This document shows, in pieces, positions 2,221-58,374 of a stretch of DNA of 64,000 nt. The translations under genes were made by a program, and so were the position numbers. The stretch's first letter is position 1. Every line of letters starts with the position of its first letter. Origin of the DNA: an uncultured delta proteobacterium (GTDB lineage: Bacteria > Desulfobacterota > Desulfuromonadia > Desulfuromonadales > JACZKF01); contig CAWFKQ010000010.1 of the NCBI GenBank assembly GCA_963816395.1, positions 28,953 through 92,952 on the forward strand, in the 5' to 3' direction. The notes under the pieces were generated by a model. That model was not told where the DNA came from. It did no database searches and was given only the letters and a program-made list of their open reading frames with translations.

Positions 2221-2255
2221 GAATTCTGAATTTTAAATTCTGAATTGAATCAATC
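2221..2255. repeat. Tandem degenerate heptamer array (GAATTCT-like, about 5 units) in the thiED-thiC spacer
   Basis: gaattct gaatttt aaattct gaattga atcaatc. The 11-mer aattctgaatt is present twice (2222-2232 and 2236-2246, period 14) and is itself palindromic. Confidence 0.6.
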
Positions 2256-2304
2256 TATCACAATCTTCGACTGTCACCAGAAGCCACGCCGACCGCTCCA
2301 GTCG

Positions 2305-3723
2305 TCAGGACGACCAGGCTTTGCGTGCCGCCTGCCAGTGGTTGAGCGGACCGTGTCCGGAGCCGAGGGGGACGGCGGTGCGGATGGCCTCGGTGACGAA
2401 ATCCTTGGCCCGGGCAACGGCCGCCGGCAGCGGCTCCCCCTGGGCAAGAAAGGCGGCGATGGCAGCCGCATAGGTACAGCCGGTGCCGTGAGTGCTGCCG
2501 GTATAAACCCGTGGCGCGGGGAAGCGGTGCAGGTCGTTGCCCGCCAACAGCAGGTCGACCGCCTCTCCTTCCAGATGTCCCCCTTTAATCAGTACATTGC
2601 GGGCGCCCATCGCCTGCAGTCGGTGGGCGGCTTCCGCCATTTCCGTCTCGTCGCGCACCAGCCGTACCGGAAAGCGCCTCTGCCTCCGGGAGATTGGGGG
2701 TGAGCAGATAGGTGCGCGGCAGCAGCTCAGCCTTGAATGGCCGCCACCGCCTCCGGTTGCAGCAGGGGGGCGCCGTCCTTGGCGAGCATCACCGGGTCGA
2801 CTACCGCCGGCAGGTTATGGCGCGCGATGGCCCCGGCGACTGCGGCGACGACGGCCGCCGAGTGGAGCATGCCGGTCTTCAGGATGTCGGCCCCGAGATC
2901 GTCGAGGACCGCAGTCAGTTGCTCCTCGACGAAGGCGGCCGGAATCGGGTGGATCCCCCGCACCCCCGTGGTGTTCTGGGCGGTGAGGGCGGTTATCGCG
3001 CTCATCCCGAAAGAGCCGAGCAAGGCGACCGTCTTCAGGTCGGCCTGGATGCCGGCGCCGCCGCCGGAGTCGGAACCCGCGGCGGTGAGTACCCGGCCGC
3101 GCGGCCAGGGGAGGCGGCGGTTGAACTGCAGGACGATCTCCCGGGCGGCGGCGGCAGGATCCGGATCGTCCATGACCGCCGAGATCACCGCCAGGGCATC
3201 GGCGCCGGCATCGATGGCTGCTGCCGCCCGGTCGCGAGTGATGCCGCCGATGCCGACCAGGGGCAGATGCACCGCCAGCCGCACCTGGCGCAGGGTTTCC
3301 AGGCCGACCAGTGCGGCGTCCGCTTTGCTGCCGGTGGGGTAAAGACTGCCGACGCCAAGGTAATCGGCGCCCTCGGCCTGCGCCCGCAGCGCCTGCTCGA
3401 CGTTGCGGGTGGAGACGCCGATCAGCCGGCCGTCGCCGAGGATCCGACGCGCCTCGACCACCGGCAGGTCTGTCTGCCCGAGGTGTACGCCGTCGGCCTG
3501 CTATTTCCCGGGCCAGATGCGGGTCATCATTGACGATGAAGACCGCCCCGGATTGCCGGCACAGCTCACGCAGGCGGGTCGCCAGCGGCAGCCGTGCGTC
3601 CGGCGCTGCGCTTTTCTGCCGGTACTGGACCACCCGCGCTCCCCCCCGCAGGGCAGCCGCCACCCGCTCCGCCAGTCGGCCGTCGCGGTCGTTATCGGTG
3701 ATCAGGTAAAGCCCATTGATCAT
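2305..3723 (-). pseudogene. thiED: Fused thiamine-phosphate synthase / hydroxymethylpyrimidine(-phosphate) kinase ThiE-ThiD; frame interrupted 3 times as written
   Basis: ThiE N-terminus MINGLYLITDNDRDG... starts at ATG 3723. It continues in track ORF 2727..3461 (ThiE C-terminus plus ThiD N-terminus, GSDSGGGAGIQADLKT), then a short third frame (KAELLPRTYLLTPNLPEAEAL), then ORF 2305..2658 (ThiD C-terminus, GTGCTYAAAIAAFLAQG). Shifts lie near 3500, 2730 and 2660. The total span is divisible by 3. Confidence 0.85.
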
Positions 3724-3821
3724 CGCAAGCTTTCGGGCGGCGCGCGAGCTGTTTCCCGGGAAAAACAAAGCGCCGCGGGCGATGAAAAGACGCGCGGCGC
3801 TCCGAATGAGTTCAGATGGTC

Positions 3822-3910
3822 CCGCCCGCTTCCCTCCGCCGGTATTACCCGGATCAGGTTCCAAGGGTCGTTCCGCCGCAGCGAAACTCTCAGTATAACA
3901 CTCCCCTAGC
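3822..3910 (-). promoter_or_regulatory. TPP (THI-box) riboswitch in the leader of thiED-thiC
   Basis: Reverse strand reads ...GGGGAGUGUUAUACUGAGAGUUUCGCUGCGGCGGAACGACCCUUGGAACCUGAUCCGGGUAAUACCGGCGGAGGGAAGC... This carries the conserved CUGAGA and ACCCUUnGAACCUGAUCnGGnUAAUnCCnGCG..GGGAA blocks. It ends about 100 nt upstream of the thiE ATG. Confidence 0.9.
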
Positions 3911-4178
3911 GGTCTGTGCTGGTTGTGGCTTGCCGGCCTTGCGGCCGGGAGTTCCCCTTTTTAAGGCTATCCGGCTTCTCGCCGGTGCCGGCTTCCGCCG
4001 AAAGGGAAATGCTCTGCGGAAACGCAGAAATCCCCGAAAGGGTAGAAAAAGACTAAAGGATTCGCCCGAGGCTGTCAACTCTATTGTCGGCACTGTCGGG
4101 AAGGTTCTTTACAGCCCCTTTTCGCCGTGGTACAAAATTCTTTTTCCCGCCTCAGCCAACCGACAGGATTTGTTCGCC

Positions 4179-56073: not shown

Positions 56074-57141
56074 TCAGGACGGCCGGGCGCGCCGGTACTG
56101 CGGCGGCCAGGGGAGATCGACGCCGAGGGCGCGGGCGGCGTGCAGCGGCCAGTAAGGGTCGCGCAGCAGTTCCCGGGCGAGAAAGACGGCATCGGCCAGG
56201 CCGGTGGCGACGATCTGTTCCGCCTGGGCCGGTTCGGTGATGAAACCGACGGTGCCGGTGGCGATCCCGGCCTGCTCGCGGATGGCGGTGGCGAACGGCG
56301 TCTGGAAGCCGGGGCCGGCGGGGAGGACGGCATCGGGCGCCAGGCCGGCGCTGGAGCAGTCGATGAGGTCGATGCCGAGCTCCCGCAGGCGGCGGCACAG
56401 CTCCACCGACTGTTCCAGGTCCCAGCCGCCCGGCAGCCAGTCGCTGGCGGAGATGCGGACGAAGACCGGCCACTCCGCCGGCCAGGCCTCGCGCACCGCT
56501 CGGGCCACCCGCAGCGGCAGGCGCAGGCGGTTTTCCAGGCTGCCGCCGTACTCGTCCGCGCGCCGGTTGGTCAGGGGGGAGAGGAACTGGTGCAGCAGGT
56601 AGCCGTGCGCCATGTGCACCTCCACCACCCGGAAACCGGCCTCCCGGGCCAGGCGGGCGGCATCGGCGAACTGGCCGACGATTTCCTCGATCTCGCCGGC
56701 GGTGAGCTCGCGGGGGAGCGGGTGCCCGGCGGCGAAGGGGAGGGGGCTGGGAGCCACCGGCTGCCAGCCGCGCGCCTCCGGGCCGAGGGGACCGCCGCCG
56801 CGCCAGGGGGCGTCGGTGGAAGCCTTGCGGCCGGCGTGGCCGAGCTGGATGCCGGCCACCGCCCCCTGCGCGGCGATGAACTCGGCGATGGGGCGGAAGG
56901 CCTCGGCGTGCGCCGCGCTCCACAGGCCGCTGTCGTCCGGGCTGATGCGCCCCTCCGGGCTGACCGCGGTCGCCTCCACCATCACCAGGGCGGCGCCGCC
57001 GACGGCGCGGCTCCCCAGGTGGACCAGGTGCCAGGAGGTGGGCAGCCCCTCGCTGCTCGAATACATGCACATGGGGGAGACGAAGATCCGATTGCGGAAC
57101 GTCACCTCCCGGATTTTCAGGGGAGAAAAGAGCACACTCAC
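56074..57141 (-). CDS. NADH:flavin oxidoreductase / NADPH dehydrogenase, Old Yellow Enzyme family (YqjM/NamA-like)
   Basis: LFSPLKIREVTFRNRIFVSPMCMYSS..., GIQLGHAGRK, HMAHGYLLHQFLSPLTN. GTG at 57141 follows GGAGG; the track ORF extends to 57225. Confidence 0.88.
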   Translation of the reverse strand: MSVLFSPLKIREVTFRNRIFVSPMCMYSSSEGLPTSWHLVHLGSRAVGGAALVMVEATAVSPEGRISPDDSGLWSAAHAEAFRPIAEFIAAQGAVAGIQLGHAGRKASTDAPWRGGGPLGPEARGWQPVAPSPLPFAAGHPLPRELTAGEIEEIVGQFADAARLAREAGFRVVEVHMAHGYLLHQFLSPLTNRRADEYGGSLENRLRLPLRVARAVREAWPAEWPVFVRISASDWLPGGWDLEQSVELCRRLRELGIDLIDCSSAGLAPDAVLPAGPGFQTPFATAIREQAGIATGTVGFITEPAQAEQIVATGLADAVFLARELLRDPYWPLHAARALGVDLPWPPQYRRARPS

Positions 57142-57240
57142 TTGGGGCCTCCGCGGCAGGGGTCCAAATTCGTAGTTATCTGCAACCACCCGCTCGATCC
57201 TCTCGCTGGAGGACACTGAGAGCACTCGGCAGCCATCACC

Positions 57241-58282
57241 TCAAACCACCCGCAGCCGCCCCGCCGGCCCGGCGGCCGCCCGGCCGATCACCCAGCCGCC
57301 GGCTCCCCGGGCGTTGAGGCCGGCCAGCAGGGCTTCGGTCCGTTCGGCGGGAACCGCCATCAGCAGGCCGCCGGAGGTCTGCGGGTCGGCCAGCAGGTCG
57401 ACCGTCTCCGGCTTCAGCTCCCGCCCGCCCAGAACCCGCGGCAGGTAGTATTCGCGGTTGTTGTAGCTGCCGGCCGGGATCAGCCCGGTCGCCGCCATCT
57501 CCCAGACCCGGGGGTAGACGGGCAGGGCGGCGGCCTCGATCTCCAGCAGCACGCCGCTCGCCTCGGCCATCTCCAGGGCGTGACCGAGCAGACCGAAGCC
57601 GGTGACGTCGGTGCAGGCCGACACCCCGACCTCCAGCATGACCTGGGAAGCCGCCCGGTTGAGGGTGGTCATGCCGGCAATCGCCTCGGCCATTTCCTGC
57701 TCGGTCAGCACCTCCCCCTTCAGGGCGGTGGTGAGAATCCCGGTTCCCAGCGGCTTGGTCAGCACCAGCCGGTCGCCCGGGCGGCAGCCGAGGGTGGTCA
57801 CCATGCGCTGCGGGTCGACCAGGCCGGTGACCGCCAGGCCGTACTTCGGCTCCTCGTCCTCCACCGTATGGCCGCCGACCACCACCGCTCCCGCCGCGGC
57901 CACCACTTCGGCGCCGCCCCGCAGGATCGCCGCCAGCAGATCGGTCCCCAGGGCGCAGGCGGGAAAGGCCGCCAGGGCCAGGGCGGTCAGGGGAACCGCC
58001 CCCACCGCGTAGAGATCGGAGAGGGCGTTGGCGGCGGCGATGCGGCCGAAGGTTGCCGGGTCATCGACGATCGGGGTGAAGAAATCGACGGACTGCACCA
58101 GCGCCTGCCCGTCGGCAAGGCGGTAGATGCCGGCATCGGCAAAGGGAATCGCCGCCGAAAGGTGGTTCGGGTCGTCGGTAGTCGGTAATTGACGCAGCAC
58201 CTGCGCCAGCGGCCCGGGGGCCAGTTTGGCGGCTCAACCCGAGCTGCGGGCGAGGGCGGTCAGGCGGACTTTGTTCGGTCAT
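57241..58282 (-). CDS. selD: Selenide, water dikinase SelD, selenocysteine-containing (in-frame TGA); N-terminal frame problem
   Basis: Track ORF 57241..58200 is the body. The same frame continues upstream through TGA (58236-58234): VRLTALARSSG-U-AAKLAPGPLAQVLRQL, i.e. Sec at the active-site position. ATG 58282 (with a GAGG Shine-Dalgarno) is offset by 1 nt, with the shift at the gaacaaag run (about 58270). Confidence 0.85.
58204..58236 (-). other. UGA (Sec) codon plus SECIS-like hairpin in selD mRNA
   Basis: UGA GC-CGCCA-AAC-UGGCC-CCCG-GGCCG-C-UGGCG: two 5-bp helices (one G-U pair) separated by a small internal loop, starting 3 nt after the UGA. Confidence 0.5.
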
Positions 58283-58346
58283 GGTTGGGCCTCGTTTGAT
58301 GAAGCGAGATTGCAAGTAGCGAGGATAGGTCAGATAGAGAAATTAA

Positions 58347-58374
58347 CTATCTCACTACTTACTACCTCACTATC
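58347..58374. repeat. Tandem ACTACNT-type heptamers in the selB-selD spacer
   Basis: ctatctc actactt actacct cactatc on the + strand (gtgagatagtgaggtagtaagtagtgagatag on the coding strand). Confidence 0.55.

Follow-up and report, generated by a model that had tools for sequence, protein, structure and literature searches.

Degenerate heptanucleotide arrays, often in inverted pairs, occupy operon-internal gene junctions in a genome of the Desulfuromonadales

The analysed stretch of DNA, hereafter the window, comprises 64,000 nucleotides of contig CAWFKQ010000010.1 (assembly GCA_963816395.1, positions 28,953 to 92,952 of the forward strand) from an uncultured delta proteobacterium. With a GC content of 64%, it contains thiC and thiED on the minus strand, alr, purH-purD-purE, nadE, a division and cell wall (dcw) cluster including mraY, murG, murC, murB and ddl, and selB-selD, again on the minus strand. 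Nine junctions in these gene groups, all between co-directional genes, are occupied by short tandem arrays of degenerate units of 7 or 8 nucleotides (nt). The arrays had been noticed in an earlier reading of the letters alone (the sequence-only reading), which described the spacers as runs of related heptamers; the assignment of thiC/thiED and selB/selD to the minus strand is a correction to it.

Tandem Repeats Finder (TRF) was applied to the window, with arrays defined by at least three copies and a GC fraction below 0.64, and the same was done for 200 shuffles keeping dinucleotides within 100-nt blocks. Seven period-7 arrays were identified against 0.03 expected, with a maximum of one in any shuffle, and two period-8 arrays against 0.03 expected, while no arrays of periods 4-6 or 10-12 were found in the window under the same criteria. 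Before these criteria were applied, TRF called octamers at 39390-39414, 58346-58378 and 9781-9806. In the 32 low-GC spacers (4447 nt), identity at lag 7 was 0.282 versus 0.253 (z = 4.1), the highest of lags 1-30. All low-GC arrays sit in spacers or in the final codons of genes; those period-7 calls that fall in coding DNA are chance matches, rich in GC and low in copy number. The units match one another at 66-93% within arrays (TRF) and are thus degenerate. The claim that degenerate heptamer arrays lie in gene junctions is therefore borne out by the seven TRF arrays, and the autocorrelation and shuffled TRF search that the sequence-only reading had proposed gave a strong excess when run on the window. 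Furthermore, the words were not restricted to these few spacers of the window, as they recur in unlinked spacers and in related genomes.

The arrays occupy a consistent position within operons. They begin on the upstream stop codon, no more than about 10 nt from it, or inside the last codons of the upstream gene, and end at the next ribosome-binding site. Two genes read into their arrays over some length, with about 13 extra codons in nadE and about 27 codons past the conserved EVRII in murB. A terminator scan of the window found no terminator-like site at any array, and the only promoter-like match at an array (2210-2239, plus strand, 9/12) is on the strand opposite thiED and thiC. Promoter matches of 11/12 (14923, 27828, 51596) and strong terminators (12917, 27757, 46373) are located in array-free spacers. 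With no canonical sites at the arrays, a role as promoters or terminators was rejected; as for Rho-independent terminators, only the murB-ddl element has a T6 run, which lies about 10 nt past the stem. Related loci were fetched for comparison, 160 from the surroundings of ddl and murC in genomes and metagenomes and three more via exact-protein look-ups (numbered with the prefix L, L163 being Desulfuromonas versatilis AP024355.1). In these loci both flanks could be assigned for 49 arrays, of which 41 likewise lie between co-directional genes.

At five of the nine junctions (alr, nadE, murG-murC, murB-ddl and selB-selD) a purine-rich array is followed 40-110 nt downstream by its reverse complement. 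The sequence-only reading was right to find the same words on both strands, which the inverted pairing of arrays within one spacer explains. All features described here are on the plus strand except those at thiED-thiC and selB-selD. Downstream of alr, a left array read directly from the sequence (5296-5316; AGGCAAG AGGCAAT AGGCTGG) overlaps the alr stop codon TAG (5295-5297) with its first unit, and a pyrimidine-rich right array (5338-5365; AACCTGG CCTGCAA CCTGGAA CCTGAAG; TRF 5334-5362, period 7, 4.4 copies) abuts the ATG (5366) of a DUF4445/AcsV-like gene. This 70-nt spacer had been counted as exactly ten units; the arrays stand, the count does not, the spacer being AGGCAAG x3 and CCTGNAA x4 around a non-repetitive middle in which phase is lost. 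Its RNA fold is weakly structured (z = -0.6). The nadE array (22665-22701; TCAGGAW x5; TRF period 7, 5.3 copies), previously given as five TCAGGNN units, reads TCAGGAT TCAGGAA TCAGGTG GCGGGAA TCAGGAA and lies within the last 13 codons of the gene, with the stop TGA at 22701-22703 and the NadE profile match stopping at residue 649 of 662. Its inverted partner, also read from the sequence (22739-22783; CCTGAAC CTTTAAC CTGAAGC ... GGAGCCTGTACC), ends just 5' of the rsmI ATG (22788), and the RNA is predicted to fold into a ladder in which 2x2 internal loops separate helices of 4-6 bp (z = -1.7).

The murG-murC spacer carries the octamer version that had been described for this junction. Its left array (39390-39419; GACGCGGA GACGCGGA GGCGCAGA GG..; TRF period 8, 3.1 copies, 88% matches) begins 10 nt past the murG stop, and an inverted partner read from the sequence (TTTTTCTCCGTGCCTCTGCGCTTC, 39461-39484) pairs with it in the RNA fold (z = -2.1). 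This right arm is the only place in the window where TCTCCGTG occurs, and it is followed by a 16-nt motif, GTGAGCGCAGCGAACG (39488-39503), of which L104 has an identical copy (1241-1256) although the MurC proteins are only about 69% identical. In the murB-ddl spacer, the left array (41806-41840; AGGCAAG AGGCAAG AGGCTCG GGGCAAG AGGAAGA; TRF period 7, 5.1 copies) is read through by the frame that carries the conserved MurB C-terminus (three-frame translation). An inner inverted pair of the same words, read from the sequence (AACCTCTAGCCTG ... GAGGTTAGAGGC, 41851-41901), follows, and then a right array (41914-41943; CCTCTAG CCTCTTG CCTCTAG CCGCTAG CC; TRF period 7, 4.3 copies, 86% matches), which is the reverse complement of the left array and precedes GGGTTTTTT and the ddl ATG (41953). 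The right array scores 15.5 as an inverted repeat with 41807-41824, and the fold of 41800-41949 has z = -5.1. Inner and outer arrays form four blocks able to pair in alternative combinations, the minimum-free-energy structure pairing blocks 1:2 and 3:4 and the centroid pairing 1:4. The earlier estimate of about 20 units in this 143-nt spacer was right as to arrays and wrong as to number, the spacer consisting of two arrays of 4-5 units plus the inner inverted pair. At selB-selD, an array of mixed 7- and 8-nt units on the minus strand (58346-58378; plus-strand sequence ACTATCTC ACTACTT ACTACCTC ACTATCTC; TRF period 8, 4.2 copies) contains the selB stop codon (58362-58364, minus strand). It had been described as a heptamer array of ACTACNT, which is present, though not as a pure heptamer. 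A partner arm read from the sequence 5' of the selD start (58306-58339, minus strand; plus-strand sequence GAGATTGCAAGTAGCGAGGATAGGTCAGATAGAG) pairs with it in the minus-strand RNA fold (z = -5.35).

The remaining junctions hold unpaired arrays. The thiED-thiC array (2215-2255, minus strand; TRF 2215-2246, period 7, 4.6 copies, 80% matches, also called at period 14) agrees with the roughly five units reported for it; its sense strand reads TTCAGAA TTTAAAA TTCAGAA TTCAAAA, corresponding to ATTCTGA on the plus strand. It ends about 20 nt 5' of the thiC ATG (2195) and is not significantly structured (z = -0.8). The mraY-murD array (35771-35798; TCAGGTA GCAGGTT TCAGGTG TCAGGAA; TRF 35771-35796, period 7, 3.7 copies), noted before as four TCAGGTN units, starts 11 nt after the mraY stop (35758-35760), and its final unit TCAGGAA provides an AGGA Shine-Dalgarno sequence for murD (ATG 35804); it is unstructured (z = +1.0). 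Between purD and purE, a heptamer array (9744-9764; TCAAGGT TCAAGGT TCAAGCG; TRF 9740-9762, period 7, 3.3 copies, 93% matches), which upholds the TCAAGGT repeat claimed there, begins 8 nt past the purD stop, and a second array of 3.4 CAAAATTT-like octamers (9781-9806; TRF and sequence reading) sits directly 5' of the purE ribosome-binding site. The three in-phase GCGTAAT units reported for purH-purD (8361-8388, at 8361, 8375 and 8382, one unrelated unit intervening) can be read in the sequence within 28 nt, are below the TRF threshold and represent the weakest of the claims; GCGTAAT has five copies in the 64 kb, on both strands. Further downstream in the same spacer (8400-8440), GATCACG, TATCACG and GATCACT follow each other at 11-12 nt, a separate period, and are succeeded by a small hairpin (CTCATTACTCAATGAG).

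The vocabulary of the arrays is small and reused. Both AGGCAAGAGGC and TCAGGNNTCAGG recur across unlinked spacers: the former occurs exactly four times in the window (5296, 41806, 41813 and, on the minus strand, 41920), in two spacers 36 kb apart, and six of the seven TCAGGNNTCAGG-like matches in the window fall within three spacers. TCAGG and CCTGA, taken together, are enriched 4.8-fold in array spacers, and the window shares words with Geobacter metallireducens, L154, L103, L107 and D. versatilis. A comparison of conserved and variable columns within units gave a Stouffer z of about 2.4, with 3 of 35 arrays at p < 0.05, and is confounded by duplicated variant units; being weak as well as confounded, it was not used as evidence for a binding core.

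Inverted pairing and strand asymmetry extend beyond the window. In the window and the related loci together, a reverse-complement partner lies no more than 150 nt away for 15 of 74 arrays, compared with 1 of 74 in each of two controls. The purine arm comes first in all five pairs of the window and in all eight pairs of the class 3 elements annotated in G. metallireducens. The arms agree at the 'variable' positions of the units too, for example at 21 of 23 in L009, and mismatches in the stems include 26 G.U against 14 A.C, a suggestive difference that is not significant (p about 0.08). In addition, two or more Shine-Dalgarno-like tetramers were counted in 18 of 92 arrays on the sense strand and in 7 of 92 on the antisense strand, and purines make up more than half of the sense strand in 29 arrays and less than half in 12.

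Across 2.34 Mb of window and related loci, low-GC arrays with at least three copies numbered 45 at period 7, and 16, 10 and 12 at periods 6, 8 and 9, respectively. Arrays were present in 43 of 161 sequences, which include many Geobacter-like contigs as well as Omnitrophota and Nitrospirales, and the phenomenon is clearly wider than Desulfuromonadales. A few contigs with much longer heptamer arrays correspond to Omnitrophota-like genomes. Longer arrays include AAGAGGT x16 directly 5' of murC (L101, 1-114), GTGAACA x8.7 after murC and GTGAATC x8 abutting ATTCACG x4 (L119, 11369-11458 and 13287-13371), TTATTGG x12 (L141, 6088-6172) and a much longer heptamer array in L037 (2023-2089).

The comparison of orthologous junctions that the sequence-only reading had proposed did not reveal conservation of the arrays themselves: those of the window are absent from the corresponding junctions of its nearest relatives, in which the murB-ddl spacer measures 32-66 nt. 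Judged by this comparison, the window's arrays are lineage-specific gains. The same junctions are, however, repeatedly occupied in other lineages by other words. At murB-ddl, L161 carries ACCTTTA x2.9 and D. versatilis (L163, 9950-9995) the class-3-like series ATTCTGA CCCCTGG ATTCTGA CCACTGA. Between the ftsZ terminator and the next gene, D. versatilis has TCACGAA x4.7 (L163, 14661-14693), and the same position holds an inverted pair of TGTCCGT/ACGGACA in L009 and L161. At murG-murC, more than 12 Geobacter-like contigs combine a left array with a right array complementary to it, and their words are quite different. A conserved framework before murC, GCGARCGAA-(9-nt word)-GCGACC-AAGGGAG, surrounds the arrays in L089, L104 and L129; the word in it varies and stays complementary to the left array. 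The 16-nt motif that the window shares with L104 belongs to this framework.

Unit numbers differ little between close relatives among the related loci. L009 and L161 have identical unit numbers in two arrays, their contigs being 97.9% identical over 14.4 kb, L141 and L142 carry identical arrays, and one octamer unit gained or lost between L103 and L107 is the only unit change seen. In L097 and L106 the right-arm murG-murC array is identical at 19 of 20 positions, while 4-fold sites are only 58% identical. The expectation that copy-number change would reshape C-terminal tails is weakly supported, holding on the evolutionary scale, as nadE, murB and selB read into arrays; these loci gave no sign of rapid, phase-variation-like change. 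L009 and L161 are mosaic, with 97.9% identity over the first 14.4 kb and 87.8% beyond, spacers being about as conserved as coding DNA; the breakpoint is near the heptamer pair 3' of ftsZ and may be a recombination boundary.

Several conserved genes of the window have split reading frames, namely murB (40911-41900), murD (35768-37160), thiED (2305-3800), rsmI (22788-23612) and the DUF4445/AcsV-like gene (5366-6600). The most likely cause is indel errors in a long-read assembly, more so than decay into pseudogenes, and exact stop positions and statements on frame near the arrays therefore carry a caveat. An assembly artefact was rejected as the source of the arrays themselves, because indel errors do not create repeats and because assemblies made independently contain arrays of the same kind, among them the finished D. 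versatilis and G. metallireducens genomes. The selD gene contains an in-frame TGA (58234-58236, minus strand) at the asterisk of ..SSG*AAKL.., where a SelD with selenocysteine should have one, and its ATG (58282) is off frame by one base, probably another indel error.

In the Rfam scan of the window at gathering threshold, the sole match was a thiamine pyrophosphate (TPP) riboswitch 5' of thiED (3814-3917, minus strand; RF00059, 73 bits), and the arrays matched no known RNA family. A tRNA scan of the window found none. The window also contains a perfect 54-nt dispersed inverted repeat (AGGTACGTCGTTGACGAAGGATGAGGGCAACGCCGCAGATGGGCGTTTTTCATC), with one copy in the murF-mraY spacer (34612-34665) and the other in a spacer 16 kb away (50543-50596). 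Words of the TCAGG type flank this second copy. The repeat resembles a small mobile or repetitive extragenic palindromic (REP)-like element distinct from the heptamer arrays. Searches of genomes, metagenomes and proteins for a same-species genome found none, the best relatives being 80-82% identical. For Ddl, one database protein is 100% identical, and identity is 82% to the next best and 78%, 76% and 74% to D. versatilis, D. soudanensis and D. carbonis. Because identities to named Desulfuromonas are only 74-78%, the source organism is, by the measure of this protein, an undescribed member of Desulfuromonadales.

We tentatively interpret the arrays as co-transcribed intercistronic RNA elements born by replication slippage, a reading to which we assign a probability of roughly 0.35 and whose RNA role is inferred from sequence. 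Slippage favouring 7-nt steps would create arrays and drive their turnover, arm-to-arm templating would probably keep the two arms alike, and arrays would persist only where a frameshift is harmless. Transcribed within the polycistronic mRNA, they would act there: paired arrays may fold into long imperfect 'ladder' hairpins between cistrons, which by analogy with REPs and bacterial interspersed mosaic elements (BIMEs) could be stabilisers or processing sites uncoupling the expression of neighbouring genes, and purine-rich units with GGAG, GAGG or AGGA cores may add Shine-Dalgarno-like sites before the downstream gene. This RNA-level reading is favoured because of the placement inside operons, the complementarity of the arms including their variable positions, the fold z-scores, the word swaps that keep the arms complementary, the surplus of G.U over A.C mismatches and the sense-strand bias in Shine-Dalgarno motifs and purines.

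Several observations weigh against it. The mraY-murD junction is only 1-2 nt long in L161 and D. versatilis, without an array, and the murG-murC spacer measures about 10 nt in L081-L087, the closest MurC relatives; as the nearest relatives lack these spacers, any function of the arrays must be dispensable. Four of the nine junction arrays are unpaired and unstructured (z from -0.8 to +1.0), the stems hold 48 transversion mismatches next to 520 Watson-Crick pairs, and the G.U excess is short of significance. The purine-first order is identical on either DNA strand and therefore does not discriminate between RNA and DNA. With respect to origin, the similarity of neighbouring over distant units is significant only through one phase-shifted array (L113); adjacent units are thus not clearly more alike than distant ones, and recent slippage is not demonstrated. 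Finally, the spacer identity of L103 and L107 (0.86) is close to that of their 4-fold sites (0.87).

This last comparison, a spacer changing at the synonymous rate with one unit gained or lost, is what would be expected if the arrays were neutral by-products, with a heptanucleotide slippage bias filling unconstrained spacers and dispensable gene ends that decay thereafter without any function. Heptanucleotides are the commonest long class of simple sequences in many prokaryotes, for which slippage related to the polymerase footprint has been proposed, as far as the work is relayed by later papers (Mrazek, 2007, via PMC4679880 and PMC4692102). The fetched loci also include arrays with unrelated words from many phyla, the nearest relatives lack the window's arrays at the orthologous junctions, and reading frames tolerate arrays only in C-terminal tails. 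Such an origin without function is nevertheless judged slightly less likely than the RNA-level reading, given that a small vocabulary (TCAGGAG/ATTCTGA, TCTCCGTG, AGGCAAG) keeps reappearing in unlinked spacers and in lineages that diverged at the family level, that inverted partners are 15 times commoner than in controls and keep a consistent purine-first order, that the L097/L106 array has been retained beyond synonymous saturation, and that the units are degenerate without clear similarity between neighbours while their number is stable between close relatives. In a bolder reading, paired arrays would form a cis-regulatory code that is conserved in Desulfuromonadales operons and that a dedicated trans-acting factor reads, setting the relative expression of neighbouring genes. 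The code would consist of a small set of complementary 7-8-nt words (UCAGGAG/CUCCUGA, CACGGAGA/UCUCCGUG, AGGCAAG/CUUGCCU) laid out as repeat 'ladders' between cistrons, many resembling Shine-Dalgarno and anti-Shine-Dalgarno sequences; its reader would be a periodic RNA-binding protein or the ribosome/RNase machinery, with slippage tuning the strength. We consider this bolder proposal improbable.

Alternatively, the units may act in DNA, as half-sites or subsites of a cooperative protein, candidates being a nucleoid-associated protein of the IHF/HU (integration host factor and HU) type or a ribbon-helix-helix protein of a type that polymerises along heptad or octad arrays. Pairs would then bracket a loop of DNA or a complex with symmetry. 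The omega repressor and MetJ bind in this way, on tandem units of 7-8 bp, and the limited, conserved vocabulary and the fixed relative orientation of pairs 65-110 bp apart would suit such sites. IHF/HU sites were proposed by Aklujkar et al. for the same elements in G. metallireducens, where insertions of the IS110 family of insertion sequences (IS) occur near class 1 elements (PMC2700814). We nonetheless regard binding to DNA as unlikely: at least 4-5 unrelated words occur within 64 kb, so several DNA-binding readers would be required, and no omega-type consensus was found at the arrays. The arrays are moreover placed inside operons and over stop codons, away from promoter-like spacers, and their Shine-Dalgarno-like motifs are biased to the sense strand. 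The words of murG-murC were replaced wholesale between lineages with the arms still complementary, which fits base pairing better than protein specificity. The adjoining IS110-family elements, as found at REPs in other bacteria (PMC2700814), could point to a non-autonomous mobile element resembling REPs or miniature inverted-repeat transposable elements, composed of left array, centre and right array and spread by a transposase. The elements are indeed intergenic inverted repeats with presence and absence differing between relatives and with the same words at several loci, and the perfect 54-nt repeat shows that small elements have spread in this genome. Yet the centres of the pairs share no similarity with one another in sequence or length, neither shared termini nor target-site duplications were observed, close to half of the arrays stand alone, a dispersed-repeat search returned no family covering the arrays, and no transposase lies near the arrays in the window, all of which makes mobility a very improbable explanation.

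Heptanucleotide repeats have been noted for decades in cyanobacteria, Xanthomonas, Beggiatoaceae and Geobacter, and the finding alone is not a new kind of element and neither resolves nor reframes the question of function. New here are the reach of the Geobacter class 2/3 vocabulary into a Desulfuromonas-like lineage, the location of the arrays inside operons, between a stop codon and the following ribosome-binding site, the fixed purine-arm-first order of the inverted pairs, and the murG-murC architecture that persists while words are swapped on both arms. D. versatilis, which is cultured and has a complete genome, and G. metallireducens are tractable hosts for separating the RNA, DNA and neutral readings.

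Among known systems, short tandemly repeated repetitive (STRR) sequences are tandem intergenic heptamers, and the sequence-only reading had drawn attention to those of heterocystous cyanobacteria. The likeness is valid as to kind, with an excess of period 7 that is mostly intergenic, and does not extend to STRR in the strict sense, with its cyanobacterial words and hosts. Comparable repeats include the Nostoc heptamer GGGGAYT (PMC4692102), TAACTGA of Beggiatoaceae, located upstream of start codons with S1, Csp and CsrA as candidate readers (PMC4679880), and GGGAATC of Xanthomonas, which forms convergent inverted pairs and shows turnover of length and sequence between close species (PMC4692102). 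Like those of the window, cyanobacterial STRR, Beggiatoaceae and Xanthomonas repeats have period 7, are intergenic and are often operon-internal or just 5' of start codons. Their genomes use one or few near-perfect words, sometimes in long arrays of up to 26-43 copies, whereas the window arrays are short (3-5 units) and degenerate, draw on many words, have no G-quadruplex potential and belong to different phyla. Phase-variable contingency repeats are near perfect and vary in unit number between close strains, so that a reading frame or promoter is switched; the corresponding observations here are the degenerate units, the two arrays unchanged between L009 and L161, the identity of L141 and L142 and the single unit by which L103 and L107 differ.

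The omega repressor binds heptads of the form WATCACW and MetJ binds 8-bp metboxes (AGACGTCT), both at promoters. The operators of omega (inc18 plasmids) and MetJ share with the window contiguous 7- or 8-bp units, which in the operators are direct and inverted and are read cooperatively by a small dimeric protein; the window arrays differ in being operon-internal and in using other words. As omega-type heptads, the ATCAC motifs of the purH-purD spacer were rejected, being 11-12 rather than 7 nt apart. A REP consists of one imperfect palindrome of about 35 nt, follows a single consensus, exists in hundreds of copies and is moved by REP-associated tyrosine transposases (RAYTs). The REP/BIME elements of enterobacteria, which are targets of IS110-family insertions, are the favoured functional analogy for the window arrays: both are intergenic, in operons or after stops, and both include inverted pairs able to form mRNA hairpins. 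In the window, the arms are instead built of tandem 7-8-nt units in many words, no RAYT was seen, and the dispersed-repeat search found no REP-type palindromic consensus family of about 35 nt over the arrays.

The closest counterparts are the multicopy intergenic elements annotated in G. metallireducens (Aklujkar et al., 2009; PMC2700814). Most of them come in pairs, one member on each strand and the spacing variable, between the 3' end of a gene and the 5' end of its neighbour. Class 1 comprises four tandem octamers, with IS110-family insertions at a fixed distance, class 2 three tandem TCTCCGTS[Y] units and class 3 five tandem heptamers MTYCTGA (reverse complement TCAGRAK), for which eight pairs with words such as CTCCTGA ATTCTGA ATTCTGA CTCCTGA are given in Figure S5; sites of the global regulators IHF/HU are the authors' hypothesis (PMC2700814). 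Both genomes, which belong to the same order, have tandem units of 7 or 8-9 nt in 3-5 copies and opposite-strand pairs about 70-115 bp apart in the same setting, and share the words ATTCTGA, CTCCTGA, TCAGGAW and TCTCCGTG. Class 3 words are matched by nadE (TCAGGAW x5), by thiED-thiC (ATTCTGA x2 in 4-5 units) and nearly by mraY-murD (TCAGGTN x4), of which only nadE has the opposite-strand partner (22739-22783), the other two being unpaired. For class 2, the right arm of murG-murC holds the class 2 word TCTCCGTGC once, followed by CTCTGCGC, and the left arm has GACGCGGA x3, a related, non-identical word; clearer class 2 copies are present in L103 and L107. The window represents another family-level lineage and differs by the additional words AGGCAAG/CCTCTTG, TCAAGGT, GCGTAAT and ACTAYCTC, by several unpaired arrays and by several that run into coding 3' ends. 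At the level of sequence, the window arrays are shown to be the same kind of element as the class 3 and, more tentatively, the class 2 paired sites of G. metallireducens, partly in the same words, an element already described in the order since paired heptamer and octamer sites were annotated there in 2009.

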